DNA from: a bacterium
Lineage (GTDB): Bacteria; Patescibacteriota; Minisyncoccia; Phycocordibacterales; UBA2100
Direction of reading: 5' to 3'
DNA: 64,000 nt
Assembly: GCA_030648265.1 (NCBI GenBank)
Contig: JAUSHX010000028.1
Coordinates: 249 to 64,248, forward strand
Below are positions 21,105 to 35,523 of the stretch, in pieces (positions within the stretch are counted from its first letter, which is position 1; every line of letters begins with the position of its first letter). Below the pieces are notes generated by a model that saw only the letters and a program-made list of their open reading frames with translations, did no database searches and had not been told where the DNA came from. A program made the position numbers and the translations under genes.

Positions 21105-21179
21105 AGCGGGGTGGAGCAGTAGTAGCTCGCAAGGCTCATAACCTTGAGGTCGCAGGTGCAATTCCTGTCCCCGCAACCA
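21105..21179 (+). tRNA. initiator tRNA-Met (CAT), CCA encoded
   Basis: AGCGGGGTGGAGCAG...GGCTCATAACC...CCCCGCAACCA. There is a 1:72 mismatch and three G-C pairs in the anticodon stem, as in bacterial tRNA-fMet. Confidence 0.85.
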
Positions 21180-27173: not shown

Positions 27174-28055
27174 TTATCTGTAATAATTCAGTAGGACTTC
27201 GAGGGTCAGGTCTACGCCTCTTGTGCGGAGTTCTTTAATTACTTTTCCAGTGTAAAGCTTTTTAAGCATTTCACTTTTTGACGCATCTTCCGCATTGTGT
27301 ATTTTTCTGTGACAATTTGGACATAAAGGCACAATGTTTACTGGAACATCAATACTGTGCGGGAAGTCTTCCTGATTAGAGATGGGTATTATATGATGCA
27401 TTTCAACGTATTGCCCCTCGAGTGTGGGGCTAAAAAAGGTCTTGTGCGATGGATCATAAGTACAGAGGTTGCCAGATAAAATAAGTGCGAGTTTAGCTAT
27501 CCTTGGGTTGCCCCGATACCCAGTAGATGAATTTTTTGTCTGTTTTCTAGGCTTTGCGATTGGTCCCTCCGGCAATGGTTCAATCGGATCCGCGATGCGC
27601 ACTGCAGTCTGGAACATCTCATCAGTTGTGTCTATGACGGACTCCCCCCTTTCTATTGCGGAGATGATTCGCTGAGCCTCCTCAATGGTGACTGTGTCTG
27701 ACGCTGCAAGACCGGAGAGGTCTTTCAGCCTGTATTCGTGACCAGTGCCGTTAGGAGATTCGAATACACGATGTGCCAATCTGCCATCCCCCTGGTTAAG
27801 CTCACTCCGATATTGCGCTGTCCAGTTACTGCCGTGATGAAACTCGTGCCTCCAAAGTTCTGAAAAGGGGTTGGATCTGAAATTCTCGATAGGTAAGTAT
27901 TTCCCAGGTTTTGCGATGGACAATGCCGAAAGAATTATTGCAAATGAGAGGCGGGTGCTATCTTTATATTGGAAAACCTCGGCTAACTCACTGGCGGTCA
28001 TTTCAGAAATCATAGCTGTATAGTTATACACATCCGAAAATAAGTAAAGCACCAA
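27174..28055 (-). CDS. HNH endonuclease (candidate restriction nuclease)
   Basis: C-terminal YVEMHHIIPIS...NIVPLCPNCHRKIHN. Divergently transcribed from the methyltransferase fusion. Confidence 0.7.
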   Translation of the reverse strand: MVLYLFSDVYNYTAMISEMTASELAEVFQYKDSTRLSFAIILSALSIAKPGKYLPIENFRSNPFSELWRHEFHHGSNWTAQYRSELNQGDGRLAHRVFESPNGTGHEYRLKDLSGLAASDTVTIEEAQRIISAIERGESVIDTTDEMFQTAVRIADPIEPLPEGPIAKPRKQTKNSSTGYRGNPRIAKLALILSGNLCTYDPSHKTFFSPTLEGQYVEMHHIIPISNQEDFPHSIDVPVNIVPLCPNCHRKIHNAEDASKSEMLKKLYTGKVIKELRTRGVDLTLEVLLNYYR

Positions 28056-28130
28056 TCTTAGTGCATAATATGCATGTTACTGCTCGTATTGGTTGATTAA
28101 TTTACCACCTACACTCAATTGGTCGAATTC

Positions 28131-31031
28131 ATGGTCTATATATCAACGAAAAAAGCCTCAGATATTTTGGGAGTATCTCCAACAACCATGAGACGATATG
28201 CGGATGCTGGGAGTTTGCCCGTTGTTCGCTTGTCGCAATCGAGGCACCGCCGTTTTGCCGTATCTGACGTTAGTAAGTTGTTGACGGACCTTTCAGTAAG
28301 AGGCGATGAGAATGGGTTCCACAAGAAGAATAGTCCATCTTTCGCCAAACCGCATCCTTCTCACTATCTATTACATAAATATTGGGGCAGAAAGGCCCAT
28401 AATATTGTCGAGAACTATGTTAAGCGATACACCCGAAAAGGAGATGTGGTACTTGATCCGTTCATGGGGAGTGGCGTTGTATTAATTGAATCGGCGAAAG
28501 CACATCGTAAGGCTATTGGAATCGACATTAACCCTTTGTCGAAGTTCATTGTTGACGGTACTACGCAGAAAGTTAACCCCGAGGAACTCGCCGAGGTCTT
28601 TGGAAACATTCTGTCTCAGTTGGAGGCAGCATTTGAATACTACAATATGACAAAATGTTTGCACTGTAGACTCGATTCAACCATAGAAACTACGGTATGG
28701 AATGAGACGGAGCCAGCAGTCATCAGATTCCGCTGCCCCGTTCACGGCGTCGGTGTTAAAGTCCCGTCCCAAAGTGATAAGAGGGTTATTAGAGAGGCAC
28801 GCACTCTGTTTGAAGATCTTGAGGCGGCACACGAATTACAATACCCCAAGGATGAGATTTTAAAATATGTAAAAAGAAGTGGAGTATCGACTATAGATGC
28901 GCTCTTTACATCCCGGGCGTTAGTGCAGTTGTCCCACCTGCTTATCCTAATAGAAAAAGTGGAAGTCCAGTCTGTCCGCGACACTTTAAAATTAATATTT
29001 AGTTCAATGTTACCGAACGTCTCGAAGATGATACCTGGCGATATTGAAAAAGGAACGTATAAGTCTGGTTGGGTCATCAGCAAATTTTGGGTTCCCAAAA
29101 TACATACGGAACGCTCCGTGTTGCATTGCTTGAAACTCCGATTCCAATCTGTTTTCAAAGGGAAAAAAGAGTTAAAAGATTTAGACGAGAGCTTAATTCA
29201 ATCGCACATAGCAGATAGTAAGAAACTGGCTCTCGATGATAATTCAGTCGATTATATTTTTACTGACCCGCCTTATGGAGAGAGTATTGCATACCTCGCC
29301 TTGAGTCATTTTTACAATGCCTGGTTTAAAATGCTACCTGAATATTCTAATGAGATTATTATCGATCCATATAGAAAGATTTCGAAAGAAGATTTTGCAA
29401 GAAATATCCAAAAATGTTTTGGAGAGATGTATAGGGTTCTTAAACCAAATAGGTTTCTATCCTTCACCTTTCACAATAGGAATTTGGATGTGTGGAAGAC
29501 TATCCTAGAGGCATGCCTAAAGTCGGGATTTACACTTAAGGACATTGTCTTTCAGCCACAGGCAGTTTCGTCGGGAACACAGGGTATCAACAGAAAGAAT
29601 ACCTTATACGGGGATTTCATCTATACATTTCAAAAACCTAAGAAAAAGAAGATTCATGAGGGGTTCAAATACTTCGATAACGCCTACGGTTTTCTGGTTA
29701 ATACAATAAATTCTCTATTAGTATCAAAAGGGCAGGTTTCTACGGCTGAATTGTATGAGCATATAATACCTATTATTGTGAAGAATCACGCATATCTGGA
29801 TAAGGATGGGAAAATTATCGATTTGGAGACATTGATCAGTAATAATTTTGAGTATAAGAAGACAGAGAAAGGTGATCGGTGGCGTGCCCTTTCCAGAGTT
29901 GCCAACACATCACGTTTCACGGTCGTGGACTTATTTGCGGGGGCGGGCGGTTTTTCTGAGGGATTTAAACACGCGGGGTTTGACATTGCTGTTGCGGTTG
30001 AAAATGACTCACGTCATAGCGAAACGTATGTGCACAATCACCCAAATACTAGATTGATAGTGGACGGAGTTGAAAACATCTCAACATCAAAGAGGCGGGG
30101 GAGGTTCTCAATTTCAGAGTTTCTAAGGGAGAATCATAAATCTTGCAACATCATCATTGGAGGTCCTCCATGTCAGGGATTCAGCATGGCAGGTTCGCGA
30201 ATTAGAAGAAAAAGAAGATTCTTATCGGATAGACGAAATACCCTGTTTCTTGAATACGTAAATTTGGTTGAAGATTTAAATCCAGAAGTATTTATACTGG
30301 AAAATGTACCGGGAATACTCAACTATGATAACGGAGCCGTAAAAGAAGAGATCATATCGAAATTCGCAGAGCTTGGATATGATGTGCATGCTGAAATCTT
30401 AGACGCAAGTAAGTATGGTATTCCTCAATCTAGAAAGCGGGCTTTTTTCATTGGGAACAGATTGGGCATTCCGTCGAAAACTCTATTTCCGAATTCACAA
30501 TGTGATAACGAAACTGTGTCAGTATGGGATGCGATTAGTGACCTTCCTCAAATTATGAGCGGTGAAGGAGGTCAGGTTATAAAAAACAATATGATGGTAC
30601 CTCAGTCACATTATCAGCAAATAATGCGATTGGAAAACGAGGACTGTATTTTCAATCATGAAGCGCCAACGCATAGTCAGGCCACTCTAGATGTTATGAA
30701 ACTCATAAAACCAGGTAAGGGATTGAAGGATCTACCTAAGGAATTTCACACAAGATCGGTTCATAGTGGTGCATATGGTCGAATGGAAAAGGATAGGCCA
30801 GCGTTCACCTTAACGACTCGTCTAAACACTCCATCGGTTGGAAGAATTACGCACCCAGTACTGCATAGAACGATCACGCCTCGAGAGGCTGCCAGGTTAC
30901 AGAGTTTCTCTGATTCGTATCGATTCTTCGGTGACGTGACAACTCAGGGAATTCAAATTGGCAACGCAGTACCTCCACTCCTGGCTGAATTAATTGCCAA
31001 AGAGATTATGAAAAAAGCTTTTGATCGGTAG
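28131..31031 (+). CDS. fusion protein: excisionase-type HTH + N4/N6 DNA methyltransferase + C5 cytosine methyltransferase
   Basis: HTH: ASDILGVSPTTMRRYA. N4/N6 domain: motif I VLDPFMGSGV, then about 270 aa later motif IV FTDPPYG. C5 domain: DLFAGAGGFSEGF, GGPPCQGFS, ENVPG, QSRKR, GNAVPP. Confidence 0.8.
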   Translation: MVYISTKKASDILGVSPTTMRRYADAGSLPVVRLSQSRHRRFAVSDVSKLLTDLSVRGDENGFHKKNSPSFAKPHPSHYLLHKYWGRKAHNIVENYVKRYTRKGDVVLDPFMGSGVVLIESAKAHRKAIGIDINPLSKFIVDGTTQKVNPEELAEVFGNILSQLEAAFEYYNMTKCLHCRLDSTIETTVWNETEPAVIRFRCPVHGVGVKVPSQSDKRVIREARTLFEDLEAAHELQYPKDEILKYVKRSGVSTIDALFTSRALVQLSHLLILIEKVEVQSVRDTLKLIFSSMLPNVSKMIPGDIEKGTYKSGWVISKFWVPKIHTERSVLHCLKLRFQSVFKGKKELKDLDESLIQSHIADSKKLALDDNSVDYIFTDPPYGESIAYLALSHFYNAWFKMLPEYSNEIIIDPYRKISKEDFARNIQKCFGEMYRVLKPNRFLSFTFHNRNLDVWKTILEACLKSGFTLKDIVFQPQAVSSGTQGINRKNTLYGDFIYTFQKPKKKKIHEGFKYFDNAYGFLVNTINSLLVSKGQVSTAELYEHIIPIIVKNHAYLDKDGKIIDLETLISNNFEYKKTEKGDRWRALSRVANTSRFTVVDLFAGAGGFSEGFKHAGFDIAVAVENDSRHSETYVHNHPNTRLIVDGVENISTSKRRGRFSISEFLRENHKSCNIIIGGPPCQGFSMAGSRIRRKRRFLSDRRNTLFLEYVNLVEDLNPEVFILENVPGILNYDNGAVKEEIISKFAELGYDVHAEILDASKYGIPQSRKRAFFIGNRLGIPSKTLFPNSQCDNETVSVWDAISDLPQIMSGEGGQVIKNNMMVPQSHYQQIMRLENEDCIFNHEAPTHSQATLDVMKLIKPGKGLKDLPKEFHTRSVHSGAYGRMEKDRPAFTLTTRLNTPSVGRITHPVLHRTITPREAARLQSFSDSYRFFGDVTTQGIQIGNAVPPLLAELIAKEIMKKAFDR

Positions 31032-31078: not shown

Positions 31079-31405
31079 ATGCCCGACGAAACCCAGGCCC
31101 CTGCGACCGAGCCAGAAACACTGAATGAGCCAGTGGCTAGTAGCCAGCAGCCCGTAGCAATACCAGAAACAGACGTATCAAGTCCTGCGGGCGATATTTC
31201 AAGCACCGAAACCCCGCCTGCGCCCCAAAACGGCCCTGGGGACATCGCGACCCCGGTTCCTGTTAAAGATGCAAATTCGGAGCCGAATTTGGCTGAGAGC
31301 AGTGGCGAAAATACGGAAAAACAGCCTGAAATCGGAGCCGCGGGAGCGGCCGCTACTGCGGTTGCTCCCGCGGCTTCATCCCCCTCGTTTATCGGCGATT
31401 TTTGA
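31079..31405 (+). CDS. low-complexity Pro/Ala/Glu-rich ORF (doubtful)
   Basis: 108 aa with no fold-like segment. Its stop overlaps the TTG of the next ORF. Confidence 0.25.
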   Translation: MPDETQAPATEPETLNEPVASSQQPVAIPETDVSSPAGDISSTETPPAPQNGPGDIATPVPVKDANSEPNLAESSGENTEKQPEIGAAGAAATAVAPAASSPSFIGDF

Positions 31406-32310
31406 AAGATAACGGTCTCGCTGTTGGCCAACCAGGAAGATTTGAATTAACAAAAGCGGGCGTGTTGTTGTTTGGTAAAAATCCTTCCATTGCACTTAAA
31501 AATAAGTGTGGAATTAAAATCTCTCATTATTATGGAACAAAACCGAGCCATACCGGAAAACCAAATTTCGTTACTCGTCCGTTTACGGTTGAAGGGCCTT
31601 TGTTGAAGCAGATTGAGCAGGCAATTGAGTACTTCAGGAATATTGTAAAGAATTCGCCACCAAAACTTAGCGGTGCGTCTTTTAACCCTACTTTTTTGGT
31701 TCCGGAATGGGCATTCCAAGAAGCCATAACAAATGCGGTTATCCACAGAAACTATTTTGTCCAAGACGATATACAAGTCAGGTTTTTTGACGATCGCGTT
31801 GAAATCGAAAGCCCCGGAACATATCCAGGCCATATTACTGTTGAAAATATCAGGACCGAACGGTTTGCGAGAAATCCGCTGATTTTGCGAACTCTCAATC
31901 GTTTTCAAATTGCCCCTAACTTGGATATTGGCGAGGGCGTAGATCGCATGTTTAAAGTTATGAAAGAGCAAAACCTGTATGAACCACTTTTCTTTCCGCC
32001 CACGATACGTCCCAATTCTGTTTTATTGTTTTTGCTTAATATTCAGAAAGTTGAGTATTGGGACACTGTCGGTAAGTATTTAGATAAAAATTATCGCATC
32101 TCTAACAAAAGAGCGCGCGAGATAACCAGTGTGCAAGATATTTTGAAAATGTCTCGACTGTTACATAATTGGGTTGAAAAAGGATTATTGGAGAAAATGG
32201 GCAAAGCCAAGAAGGACTGCTATTACCGTAAACCAGGACAGGAAATCCCCAAGGGTTTATTTTCAATGGGGGGTGATAATAAAACCGGCAAAGGGAATTT
32301 ACACCCTTAA
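31402..32310 (+). pseudogene. 5'-truncated AlbA_2/HATPase_c_4-type putative DNA-binding protein
   Basis: It begins near the end of the AlbA_2 domain (LTKAGVLLFGKNP), then QEAITNAVIHRNY ... IESPGTYPG ... RNPLI ... IGEGVDRMF. It opens with TTG and lacks the N-terminal ~100 aa. Confidence 0.5.
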
Positions 32311-32364
32311 AATAGGCATATTTTGGTAGGCCTTATTCTCACAGACACATTAAAGGAAGAAATT

Positions 32365-34158
32365 ATGTCAACGCCGCAATCTGAAAATTCATATATTGCC
32401 AATGAAATCTTGCCTCTCTTGGCAAGTGGTTTTGGCTATCCGATTCACGATTCTGTCAGGGTAAAAATCAACGATGTCCCGATTTTCCGGCCGAGTGGTG
32501 GTCGAGCAGGCACTATGGATATTGTCTACTATCACAATGGTGAGCCAGTACTACTCGTAGAAGCTAAGAGAAAACACAAATCGCATGATGCGGCATTGCA
32601 AGAGGCCCTTAAATATTTACTTAATTTTCCCGTTAAACGTGAAGAGTTCGCTCCATCCGGCATACCCCCGAAATTTTTGGCAACAACTGTCGGCAAAGAA
32701 ATAAAGTTTTATAAATGGTCGTACGATTATTCTCATCAGATACCGGATTTTTTGACAGAAGAAGTTGAGATTCTGTCGTTTAATAGACTTCTTGAGTATT
32801 ACGGTTTAAACGAAAAGTATCAGGCACGTATTTTGGATGTGAGAGGATTTAAGACAGATTTTTTTGACGAATTAGTAGCAATTTTTAAAACAGATGCGAA
32901 GGAGGAAAGAATCACCGCAGATATTATCAAGAAGGTTTCACTGCAGATTCTTAATTTTTTGGCTTATGGAGATAAGTTTGCCGGTCAGCTGCCCTATACC
33001 GGTTTGTCTATACAGGGACAAAAGGCAGTGCGTGACTTGTTTGACCGCTTTAATCTAACATCCTCGCTTGGACCGGAAGCCGCCAGAGAGTTCCGCAGAG
33101 CAATTCTACGCTCCTTTCAGGGTGGCGGATTTAACCAGTATCTTACAGAACAGTGCGTGATTGCTTTCATGGTCGGTCTAGTAGGGGGTTTTAGACCGGA
33201 AACCACGGTGCTTGATTTCGAGTGCGGAAGCGGTGGATTCTTAGCAGCCGCTGTTGAGCTTGGCGTCGGTTTGGAAAATATACGCGGCATAGATATCGAG
33301 GAATTACCTTGTATTGTTGCCAAGACCTATTTAGCTCTATATTTCAAGAAAACGGGTGAATGGATTGATGCTCTACCAGTGAAAAAAGATAACGGCCTGC
33401 TCGACCAAGGGAGTAATTGGGATGTTGTAATCGGCAATCCAGCTGGTGGGAATAAATACGAGCACGGAGGTTTAGTAAAAATTGGAAGTCACCTTGACCG
33501 AGACTTGGATAGAAACGGTCGGCTGGACGACAATCTTTCCGAGTATAACCTTTCCATTCAGCAGGCCGTGATGAGTACAAAGATTGGCGGAAAAATCTGC
33601 CTGATTTTGCCGGAAGGATTTTTTTCGAACTCACAGGATGAGTTTCTGCGCAAATTTGTGGCCAAGCATTGTAAAGTGTTGGCGATTGTTAGTCTGCCGC
33701 GCGGTGTCTTCAAGAAAGGGACCTCAACGCGTCGACTAAGGGGTGGTGCGCAAACCGCCTCTATGAAAATGTCTATTTTTTGTGCAGAGAAAGTGAAAGA
33801 GATTGATAAGGAAGATCTGATTGGCACCGACGATTCTTCTACCGTGAGTTATCCAGTATTTCTTGTGAGCGTAAACGAACCAACATCAACAAGCGGGTCG
33901 GTTTGTGACTGGCTTGAACCGCGCCTCGTTGCCGTATTAGAGCAGTGGGAAGTATGGCGCAGCAGCGAGCATCTTGAAGCAAAGCCGATTACCAAAATCG
34001 CCGCATTAGTAAGTGAAAAGAGAAAGAAACATTTGCCCGCCGTGCCGTTACCTTTCGCACAAAGTCCAGATGCCGATACCAAGTCGGCGCGCAAACGAGC
34101 ACAGCCGAAGACGCAGACCAAGGTCAACAAAGATTTGGACGATATTTTCTCGCAATAA
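32365..34158 (+). CDS. PD-(D/E)xK nuclease-like N-terminus fused to an N6-adenine-MTase-like domain with atypical motif IV
   Basis: MDIVYYHNGEPVLLVEAK (D...EAK), motif I LDFECGSGGFL, and VIGNPAGG where NPP[FYW] is expected. SD AAGGAAG lies upstream of the ATG. Confidence 0.6.
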   Translation: MSTPQSENSYIANEILPLLASGFGYPIHDSVRVKINDVPIFRPSGGRAGTMDIVYYHNGEPVLLVEAKRKHKSHDAALQEALKYLLNFPVKREEFAPSGIPPKFLATTVGKEIKFYKWSYDYSHQIPDFLTEEVEILSFNRLLEYYGLNEKYQARILDVRGFKTDFFDELVAIFKTDAKEERITADIIKKVSLQILNFLAYGDKFAGQLPYTGLSIQGQKAVRDLFDRFNLTSSLGPEAAREFRRAILRSFQGGGFNQYLTEQCVIAFMVGLVGGFRPETTVLDFECGSGGFLAAAVELGVGLENIRGIDIEELPCIVAKTYLALYFKKTGEWIDALPVKKDNGLLDQGSNWDVVIGNPAGGNKYEHGGLVKIGSHLDRDLDRNGRLDDNLSEYNLSIQQAVMSTKIGGKICLILPEGFFSNSQDEFLRKFVAKHCKVLAIVSLPRGVFKKGTSTRRLRGGAQTASMKMSIFCAEKVKEIDKEDLIGTDDSSTVSYPVFLVSVNEPTSTSGSVCDWLEPRLVAVLEQWEVWRSSEHLEAKPITKIAALVSEKRKKHLPAVPLPFAQSPDADTKSARKRAQPKTQTKVNKDLDDIFSQ

Positions 34159-34173
34159 ATTGCAGGTACTGTC

Positions 34174-34305
34174 ATGGACGAGGAACTCTTCGAACTCGCA
34201 AAAGATAACGACCTAACGCTTGATGAGGCCCAGGAGGTTCAGGATTTGGCTGATGAGACGGGTCTGGATCTCAACGAAGCATTGGAAATTTGGCAGGCAC
34301 AATAA
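34174..34305 (+). CDS. 43-aa highly acidic small ORF
   Basis: MDEELFELAKDNDLTLDEAQEVQDLADETGLDLNEALEIWQAQ. It is absent from the ORF track because it is shorter than 60 aa. Confidence 0.3.
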   Translation: MDEELFELAKDNDLTLDEAQEVQDLADETGLDLNEALEIWQAQ

Positions 34306-34672
34306 TAGCAGCCCTGAAACCAGCTGTTGGTAACTCGCTTCGCAACTCGCTAATACTAAGCTAGGGTGCTCAACGATAGCCAAAAGTGCTATCATGTTCT
34401 GTACACCACCAATATCGGCTCGAAAGAGCGTCGACCTAAACTATTCGCAAGAGTGGCATGGTCGAGAAGACCCAATCACGATACTGAACCCGCCTGTTTG
34501 GGCTGTCCCCACTTCTTGCGAATTTCATCTTGACCATGTATACTGCTACGCATAAACACCTTGTCGTAGCTTCGGTTACGGTAAGTCAACGAAAGGGGGC
34601 TTAGGCCCCCTTTTGTTATGTATGGTATTCTTGAATCCATGGTATTCTGAACTTCAGATTCACACTTTCTAT

Positions 34673-35173
34673 ATGGCAACGAAAATAAACCAAGCAAAGT
34701 ATCGCAACGCCATCCTGTTTTTTGCGAGTAGGATTCAAAATGGCACGCTCGGCAAGTTGAAGCTAATGAAGCTTCTCTACTATTTCGATTTCGATTTCTT
34801 CGAGAAATATGGGCGCTCGGTTACAGGTGATAAATACCTACGTTTCGAGAATGGTCCCGTGCCACGTATGGCAGAGAAGATTATAAAGCAGATGGATGGC
34901 AAAGAAATCAAGATTTCGAGGCGAAAGGTAGCTGATGGCTATAAAGACCAGATGCATATAGAAGCTCTTGTGGCCTTTGATATTAGTGTTTTCGAAAAAG
35001 AAGAAATCCTTCTTCTCGAGGAACTTGCGTCCAAATGGGAACGCTTTAGCGGTGCCGAAATGAAAAGTGCGACTCATGGTGAAGCACCATGGATTGCCAC
35101 CGAAGCGAATGGCGTCATCGATTACAATCTCGCCTATTATCGAGACACATACGGCGAAATGGCAAAGGTCTAG
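34673..35173 (+). CDS. DUF4065 (Panacea/SocA-like) antitoxin-type protein
   Basis: LGKLKLMKLLYYFDFDFFEKYGRSVTGDKYLRFENGPVP pattern. Confidence 0.65.
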   Translation: MATKINQAKYRNAILFFASRIQNGTLGKLKLMKLLYYFDFDFFEKYGRSVTGDKYLRFENGPVPRMAEKIIKQMDGKEIKISRRKVADGYKDQMHIEALVAFDISVFEKEEILLLEELASKWERFSGAEMKSATHGEAPWIATEANGVIDYNLAYYRDTYGEMAKV

Positions 35174-35184
35174 CGGAGAACCTC

Positions 35185-35523
35185 ATGGATCTTTGTCGTC
35201 ACGAAGATATCGAGAAAGATTTTCATGCGCTGAAACGCTTTGCTGCGCCACAAGCTTCACTTGAAGCGTGGGAGCGACTCTTTTCACTCAAAGGTCTCAA
35301 AGAAACACCGGGAATTGATGCGTTTCCTGGTTTTGGGGGTGCGAAGATATATAAAGGTCGCGTGGTTCCTCTCAAAGAGAATGTTGGTAAGTCAAAGGGT
35401 TACCGGGTGATTTTTGAATTGCAGGAAGAACAGCGCTATCGCATCGTAGTTTTCTCACGACATGGGATTTATCATGACGAACAAGATTTGATAAATCTTG
35501 TCAGGATCAGACTCAAGCGTTGA
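35185..35523 (+). CDS. RelE/ParE-superfamily-like toxin
   Basis: KIYKGRV...GKSKGYRVIFEL...YRIVVFSRH pattern, 112 aa, 11 nt after the DUF4065 gene. Confidence 0.5.
   Translation: MDLCRHEDIEKDFHALKRFAAPQASLEAWERLFSLKGLKETPGIDAFPGFGGAKIYKGRVVPLKENVGKSKGYRVIFELQEEQRYRIVVFSRHGIYHDEQDLINLVRIRLKR

Follow-up and report, generated by a model that had tools for sequence, protein, structure and literature searches.

Two adjacent genes in a 64-kb stretch of bacterial DNA (contig JAUSHX010000028.1), the whole of which we call the window, are the subject of this analysis. The larger gene encodes a protein, here called X, in which a PD-(D/E)xK nuclease is joined to a gamma-class N6-methyltransferase fold. 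The smaller gene, which starts 15 nt past the stop codon of the first, encodes an acidic microprotein. The features of both, and of the genes around them, are collected in Table 1.

Table 1. Features of the X gene, the microprotein gene and their surroundings, in window coordinates
Feature	Position	Strand	Description
Gene X	32365..34158	+	597 aa; HSDR_N-type PD-(D/E)xK nuclease, HsdM-like helical domain, N6-methyltransferase-like fold with NPAG, basic tail
Nuclease catalytic motif D52...E66-A-K68	32515..32568	+	MDIVYYHNGEPVLLVEAK; D in 121/121, E in 121/121, K in 120/121 homologs
Methyltransferase-like fold (N6_Mtase/Eco57I)	33121..33717	+	Pfam PF02384 E 1.8e-10, PF07669 E 1.4e-6
S-adenosylmethionine (SAM)-binding motif I	33211..33243	+	LDFECGSGGFL; D, C, G, S, G and F invariant in 121 sequences
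Degenerate motif IV	33433..33459	+	GNPAGGNKY (GNPAGG at 33433-33450); NPAG in place of NPP[YFW]
Conserved C-terminal helix	33910..33957	+	WLEPRL..LEQW..W; W, L, E, W and W invariant or near-invariant; helix 513-534 in the model
Disordered basic tail	33982..34155	+	predicted local distance difference test (pLDDT) <50; ends in TKVNKDLDDIF (34117-34149)
Acidic microprotein gene	34174..34305	+	43 aa, 15 D/E, 1 K, predicted three-helix bundle
5'-truncated AlbA_2/HATPase_c_4/wHTH gene (c3')	31402..32310	+	302 aa, immediate upstream neighbor of X; Pfam HATPase_c_4
HNH nuclease gene	27174..28055	-	293 aa
Methyltransferase fusion gene	28119..31031	+	970 aa; HTH_17 + N4/N6 methyltransferase + C5 cytosine methyltransferase
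Low-complexity open reading frame (ORF)	31079..31405		Pro/Ala/Glu-rich
Terminator-like hairpin	34592..34614		strong
Panacea/SocA-type antitoxin gene	34613..35173		
ORF overlapping the antitoxin gene	35089..35523		144 aa, no family match
tRNA-Met	21105..21179		
Defense island	~21100..35700		

Gene X and its motif IV

ORF calling places the stop codon of the X frame at 34156-34158 on the plus strand and leaves two candidate starts: a TTG at 32323, which would give 611 aa, and an ATG at 32365, preceded by AAGGAAG, which gives 597 aa. Because all X homologs and the NCBI model (P0001, 597 aa) begin at the ATG, we take X to be 597 aa long; the 611 aa reported in the initial annotation, which had been made from the sequence alone, belong to the upstream TTG. 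The AlphaFold2 (AF2) model of X (pLDDT 77, predicted template modeling score 0.76) shows, from the N to the C terminus, an alpha/beta nuclease, a helical domain, a Rossmann-type methyltransferase fold, a long conserved helix and a disordered tail. What lies beyond the methyltransferase fold amounts to two strands, one helix and this tail, which comprises the final 58 residues of X and is basic (13 K+R, pI ~10), with no target-recognition domain. By this layout, X joins a nuclease of the HsdR type to an entire HsdM-like body and lacks a recognition domain, and both the model and the composition bear out the earlier statement that no obvious recognition domain follows and that the chain ends in a Lys/Arg-rich tail. 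We infer only that the conserved C-terminal helix might dock to the coiled coil of a specificity subunit.

The D...E-A-K nuclease signature that had been read from the sequence is indeed present; it is near-invariant in the family and coincides with a marginal Pfam HSDR_N match (E 4.4e-5; 23.8 bits, slightly below the 25.1-bit cutoff). SAM-binding motif I is likewise intact, as had been proposed, and a PDB sequence search aligns it to DPACGTGGFL of StySJI M.

Among 5.8 billion proteins searched, 311 proved to be related to X. The best 120 of these, besides the window's own protein, are 450-606 aa long and 50-84% identical to it, and in every case come from metagenomes or metagenome-assembled genomes (MAGs) of uncultured bacteria. 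In the alignment of these 120 with X (121 sequences), motif I is essentially invariant as D-x-x-C-G-S-x-G-F, and at motif IV the Asn is kept in 121, the Pro in 121, the Ala in 120, the Gly in 121 and a Tyr at +7 from the Asn in 121. Since the PDB sequence search aligned DVVIGNPAGG of X with DVILANPPFG of StySJI M column for column, NPAG sits exactly at motif IV. The initial annotation had reported GNPAGG in place of NPP[FYW], and so it is: being in register with NPPF and fixed in 121 sequences, NPAG leaves no room for a shifted NPPY, and the alignment of homologs shows no displaced one. By these alignments, NPAG is a family-wide trait and not local damage. Our literature searches surfaced no paper with NPAG methyltransferase-like proteins.

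The SNF2-M-S-X operon

We called ORFs and clustered the neighbors of X in 35 loci from species-representative genomes and in 9 further loci holding the closest homologs. X is the final gene of a co-directional block in 35 of the 37 loci with usable upstream sequence. The block runs from an N6-adenine methyltransferase, M (330-380 aa), through a protein of ~270 aa, S (272 aa), to X, with M and S sometimes fused, and in 24 loci an SNF2 helicase of 960-990 aa (~977 aa) stands ahead of it. The closest relatives of window X (75-78% identical) all belong to a full four-gene operon, which is widespread among uncultured phyla. S matches type I specificity-subunit models and has one recognition domain, as a half-size HsdS would. 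The best model for the SNF2 protein is DISARM DrmD (E 1e-181; 605 bits against a family cutoff of 950), and no nuclease domain was detected in this motor. M carries a canonical GNPPYGG and is 35% identical to X over the second half of the methyltransferase fold (the X region against the C-terminal half of M). Because M has GNPPYGG and X has NPAG, each operon combines one orthodox methylase with one nuclease-bearing paralog whose motif IV is broken.

The pairing of NPAG in X with the canonical motif in M agrees with an alteration or loss of the methylation chemistry of X, and this part of the earlier proposal stands. The other part, that X is a single-chain type IIG/IIL-style enzyme, does not: the catalytic nuclease is there, but X has neither the motif IV (D/N/S)PP(Y/F/W) nor a recognition domain on the same chain, and it is a subunit of a multi-gene system.

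PADLOC and NCBIfam matched X, M and S with generic methyltransferase and specificity-subunit models only. X was found in neither plasmids nor IMG/VR, and phages gave generic methyltransferase-domain matches only. Literature searches for SNF2 with HsdM/HsdS and for restriction in candidate phyla radiation (CPR) bacteria returned no description of the operon, an absence that is not proof of novelty. We rate the SNF2-M-S-X operon as a restriction-modification (RM) system with a new arrangement.

The length of X varies with its tail. In X proteins of 588-611 aa, a lysine-rich disordered stretch is closed by a terminal motif, K[ST]xTKISxxL[ED]D[IL]F, whereas those of 529-563 aa have no tail. The tail goes together with the motor: 22 loci have both and 7 have neither, against 2 with the tail and no SNF2 and 2 with SNF2 and no tail (Fisher p 2.6e-4). 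We infer from this co-occurrence that the C-terminal peptide of X may recruit the SNF2 motor. The tails also carry a Qxx[LM]F-like element (RQKSLF, SQKTLF, SLPLF; VPLPF at 34042-34056 in the window), which resembles the bacterial sliding-clamp-binding motif and could tie the system to replication forks.

Taken together with the gene order, these features make it probable, in our judgment, that X serves as endonuclease subunit in an ATP-dependent RM system not described before and composed of SNF2, M, S and X, with the window copy orphaned and the microprotein a separate entity. In the mechanism that we propose, the HsdM-like body of X probably binds SAM and would no longer methylate, serving as a SAM-binding adaptor by which the nuclease is placed on the recognition complex of S and M. 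M would protect host DNA, the SNF2 motor, recruited by the C-terminal peptide of X, would reel in DNA, and X would then cleave DNA that is unmodified. METTL3-METTL14 pairs an active DPPW enzyme with an inactive EPPL one, and the partnership of inactive METTL14 with active METTL3 may serve as an analogy for X beside M, an active enzyme being joined in each by a paralog with a degenerate motif IV as a putative scaffold. METTL3-METTL14 is, however, a eukaryotic RNA enzyme with no nuclease, and its homology to X and M is limited to the shared fold.

It is unlikely, in our view, that X is instead a fully active bifunctional RM subunit like the type IIB A subunit, in which NPAGxxKY would still methylate in addition to M, its target being perhaps the second strand or another base. 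Almost every operon already has its NPPY enzyme, which makes another methylase superfluous; among the papers listed in the literature search, none has NPAG as a whole word; and, to our knowledge, every characterized N6 or N4 methyltransferase retains the second proline, the aromatic residue or both. Such an activity would nevertheless agree with the conservation of the SAM motifs, the Asn-Pro and the invariant Tyr, with the BsaXI RM subunit as the best full-length structural match and with the existence of type I systems with two unlike M subunits, PacII M1M2S being among the structural matches.

The proposal of X as a nuclease-bearing adaptor has further points to its disadvantage. The Asn and first Pro of motif IV are kept along with the invariant Tyr, and methyl transfer by X is thus possible from its sequence. 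Seven X loci have M-S-X and no SNF2, and the motor is therefore not obligatory. The contacts proposed between X and S and between the tail and SNF2 are suggested by co-occurrence and analogy. Finally, X adjoins the same upstream gene, c3, in the window and in a second locus (see below), so that it may have a life outside the operon.

X has elements in common with Type I, IIB and ISP enzymes and falls under the definition of none. With Type I enzymes (EcoKI, EcoR124I) its system has in common separate M and S subunits, an HsdR N-terminal-type nuclease motif and a superfamily 2 (SF2) motor. It differs in that the nuclease is fused to an HsdM-like pseudo-subunit and not to the motor, which is SNF2/DrmD-like and has a chain of its own, in that S has one recognition domain, and in that there are two unlike M-fold proteins (NPPY and NPAG). 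The HsdM/HsdS-type genes that adjoin X homologs, with S at half size, are absent from the window. Type IIB enzymes (BcgI A; RM.BsaXI, PDB 8w0p) resemble X in having a chain with an N-terminal PD-(D/E)xK nuclease and a gamma-class methyltransferase, without a recognition domain, next to a separate S, and BsaXI was the top PDB sequence match and the top Foldseek match of X. Yet they methylate with that same chain, by a canonical motif IV, need no helicase and have no extra M gene; the degenerate motif IV of X, its separate NPPY methyltransferase and the SNF2 helicase that usually accompanies it led us to reject X as a type IIB RM (A) subunit. Type ISP enzymes (LlaGI, LlaBIII) likewise bring together a nuclease, an SF2 motor, an N6-methyltransferase fold and a recognition domain, but do so in one polypeptide with an active methyltransferase, whereas the X system spreads these activities over four genes.

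Among other defense systems, class 1 DISARM (DrmD with DrmMI) comes close in that the SNF2 partner best matches DrmD and adjoins an N6 methyltransferase. DISARM, however, has no HsdS and no nuclease-HsdM fusion, and we rejected it because the DrmD-like score of 605 bits lies below the cutoff of 950 and no DrmA, DrmB or DrmC appears in the gene maps of the X loci. MADS, the methylation-associated defense system, was rejected as well, X scoring 62 bits against the equivalog cutoff of 720 for the MAD2 methyltransferase in a match that reflects generic methyltransferase similarity, and the BREX-related systems of PMC12839542 were ruled out on gene content. Should X act as we propose, a restriction enzyme can be made by shifting the nuclease from the motor to a methyltransferase copy that is itself inactive. 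Bacteria would then offer an example of an active/pseudo-enzyme pair, and a fourth wiring of the same four activities would stand beside those of Type I, Type IIB and Type ISP.

Some X loci contain additional genes. In another clade, a conserved basic ORF without a family match (MKKDxKTIGITIRFFTN...FWTCGNVHL) follows X; it is ~95 aa long in L004 (11667-11948) and L006 (11785-12081), with a shorter match of 50 aa in L003 (8590-8742). A DUF3800 gene is inserted ahead of X in L007, L022, L023 and L024.

The acidic microprotein

The microprotein has a net charge of ~-14, its acidic residues numbering 15 (7 D + 8 E) on recounting and not 18, as first given. Nor is the ORF unannotated, as had been stated: NCBI lists it as hypothetical protein Q7S08_03845. 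The AF2 model is a compact three-helix bundle with a pLDDT of 91.

A profile built from two peptides, that of the window and that of an X locus designated L001, retrieved at least 228 proteins of 42-43 aa, which form two subtypes, each ~90% conserved at nearly every position. The genes of the window and of locus L045 differ at 22 nucleotides, 20 of which are third codon positions, and these differences amount to 19 synonymous and 1 nonsynonymous codon changes, and three copies of 42 aa differ from one another by 11-12 synonymous changes and no nonsynonymous change. From one locus to another, the flanking sequences show no relationship on either side, even immediately before the ATG and after the stop codon. 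A conserved DNA or RNA element in place of a protein was rejected because the differences fall at third positions and conservation ends at the start and stop codons. Judged by these substitutions, the microprotein is a genuine protein under very strong purifying selection.

Searches of Pfam, PHROGs, PDB sequences and PDB folds gave no significant match, Geminin, EF-Ts and UBA-like hits being at noise level. GenBank phages and IMG/VR gave no match either, on which ground we rejected a phage anti-restriction gene as its origin. Among 1.84 billion representatives, 285 clusters contained the module, mostly in proteins of 42-76 aa and in every case C-terminally; in a few proteins, 100-205 aa long, membrane helices precede it. 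Distant relatives of this kind (P0286, P0293, P0365, P0368 and P0334) consist of N-terminal membrane helices, an acidic linker and the module at the C-terminal end. We found no description of the microprotein in literature searches, and here, too, absence is not proof of novelty. In our assessment, the microprotein represents a family not described before, and its role would be new if it is linked to restriction.

The initial annotation had suggested a DNA mimic or small antitoxin and had made its reading depend on conservation of the small ORF next to X homologs. Such conservation is not seen: the microprotein follows X in only 1 of the 43 other X loci (L001), and we rejected it as a conserved partner of X. 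The L001 homolog, of 42 aa, starts 9 nt past the stop codon, and its likeness to the window peptide does not stem from composition only, their Smith-Waterman score being 68 against 30.5 +/- 5.5 in 5000 shuffles. What survives of the suggestion is the link to restriction, as the microprotein follows many other kinds of restriction system. A type II antitoxin was rejected, since the gene shows no conserved pairing with a single cognate toxin family: X precedes it in 1 of the 43 other X loci, and elsewhere the preceding enzymes are of Type I, Type III or MmeI-like kinds that are unrelated to one another.

Behind restriction genes, the microprotein occurs in at least 14 independent loci of Patescibacteria and after at least five kinds of system, nearly all with an SF2 motor. 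Upstream of it lie Type III Mod-Res genes (L045, L050, L074); a methyltransferase with AlbA_2 and ResIII (L049); Type I systems (L048, L054, L073, L079) or remnants of a Type I S (L071); PLD-SNF2 with an MmeI-like methyltransferase (L047, L057, L071); an MmeI-like methyltransferase (L066); SNF2-M-S-X (L001); and, in this window, X alone. A few short contigs have other defense genes, or genes of no assigned kind, in that position. In two unrelated neighborhoods, L050 (6865-7167) and L074 (9126-9434), a Type III system is followed by a 42-aa microprotein gene that shares 4 nt with a gene for a winged-helix protein of 100-102 aa, and the three may form a mobile unit.

We favor a functional link between the microprotein and restriction, given the constant orientation, the tiny gaps and the persistence across unrelated neighborhoods seen in these sequences. 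The microprotein gene lies on the strand of the upstream gene in 14 of 14 loci, at a distance of 1-45 nt in 13 of them and, in L066, of 55 nt to the conserved module. The microprotein might alternatively be unrelated to restriction, a small conserved gene flanking a hotspot into which defense cassettes insert. We regard this as possible though doubtful. It would explain why, in three related genomes, one and the same site (tyrS...trpS-aspS-scpA) holds the microprotein with three different restriction systems upstream (L049/L051, L074-L078 and L079), and many microprotein loci do lie in prophage-like or island contexts; the extreme conservation, moreover, suggests a conserved cellular partner. 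A hotspot is harder to reconcile with a gene that keeps its place directly 3' of restriction genes in five or more unrelated neighborhoods, co-oriented and close to them, while both flanks are unrelated up to the start and stop codons and the downstream genes vary in kind and orientation.

If the link of the microprotein to restriction is functional, its extreme conservation across unrelated enzymes implies a target common to all of them, either their DNA-binding grooves or a conserved host factor. Like the DNA mimics T7 Ocr, ArdA and T7 gp5.9, and the host protein DinI, the microprotein is small, helical, strongly acidic and linked to restriction, and it presents a strong negative charge (15 D/E against 1 K) on a folded scaffold, the three-helix model being a confident one. 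In contrast to known mimics, it is encoded by the restriction operons themselves and not by phages or plasmids; it has no sequence or fold similarity to them, and it is far smaller and far more conserved. With low confidence, we propose that it may be a polyanionic, DNA-mimic-like governor or brake of translocating restriction enzymes. A broader version, which we put forward tentatively, is that the microprotein could be a built-in brake or assembly factor of the DNA-mimic type, encoded by the host and shared in Patescibacteria by Type I, Type III, PLD-SNF2/MmeI-like and SNF2-M-S-X systems and that, separately, SNF2-M-S-X would be a new architecture in which a pseudo-methyltransferase subunit delivers the nuclease. 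The membrane-anchored distant relatives speak against such a brake, as they do not suggest DNA mimicry, and so does the recurrence at one site with three different restriction systems, which also fits an insertion hotspot.

We consider the microprotein the more important of the two findings, a gene under strong purifying selection behind many unrelated restriction systems. The pattern points to a common step in the control or assembly of restriction enzymes, or to a common cellular partner, that is undescribed so far, and genes of this size are routinely missed or ignored by annotation.

The X copy in the window and its surroundings

SNF2, M and S were not found in the 64-kb window by tblastn, the only signal being a weak match of M to the methyltransferase fold of X. 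Since a lone X has neither a recognition domain nor a motor, sequence-specific restriction by this locus is unlikely. In locus L002, from a Sungiibacteriota MAG, an X gene is likewise directly preceded by a gene for an AlbA_2/HATPase_c_4 protein of 491 aa, and the upstream neighbor of window X, c3', matches residues 188-491 of that protein at 95.7% identity. As the homology of the window to this gene starts abruptly at ~31394, c3' has lost its AlbA_2 domain. A low-complexity ORF stops exactly where the homology begins and marks a rearrangement junction. Full-length relatives of c3 accompany X operons in four other loci, and in one of these arrangements (L033: c3, SNF2, M-S, X) a deletion would give c3 followed by X.

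This raises the possibility, to which we give limited credence, that window X is a functionless and decaying leftover of a deleted SNF2-M-S-X operon, next to the acidic ORF by accident. The missing partners, the upstream neighbor truncated at a breakpoint, the gene order of L033 and the tail peptide, which is associated with SNF2 and persists here without any SNF2, would all be accounted for. Decay, however, is not what the gene itself displays. The frame of 597 aa is unbroken, none of the invariant residues has been lost, and the nonsynonymous distance of window X to the outgroup L041 is 0.228, against 0.216-0.227 in eight other copies, seven of them operon-linked; with a distance so close to theirs, relaxed selection is not indicated, and there is no acceleration of rate. 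Since L002 has the same c3-X junction, the arrangement is old and has persisted, and the partner genes could sit elsewhere in the genome.

The two genes on either side of that junction have diverged unequally. Between 31394-33920 of the window and 855-3382 of L002, c3 is 96% identical at the protein level with a synonymous divergence (dS) of 0.69, and X is 75% identical with dS saturated; the X of L002 is itself 94% identical to the operon-linked X of L044. Such discordance suggests recombination at the gene boundary.

The genes for the HNH nuclease and the 970-aa methyltransferase fusion, upstream of c3' and divergently oriented, are probably a separate type II restriction system. Downstream, a hairpin separates the microprotein gene from a Panacea/SocA-type antitoxin gene, which with the ORF that it overlaps is a candidate toxin-antitoxin pair. 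The whole forms part of a defense island that starts after tRNA-Met, with genes for GIY-YIG, Fic, RadC, AbiEii and T5orf172 inside it and ilvD beyond it; no flanking direct or integration repeats were found for this tRNA-Met-linked island, and GC content falls to 0.39-0.43 at 28-33 kb of the window. In other genomes, X-operon and microprotein cassettes (L036, L037, L039, L047, L048, L071 and L073) often have as neighbors genes for a large serine recombinase, a terminase-like protein and a ParB_N-N6_N4 methyltransferase, and restriction cassettes in such company may be cargo of prophage-like elements of Patescibacteria.

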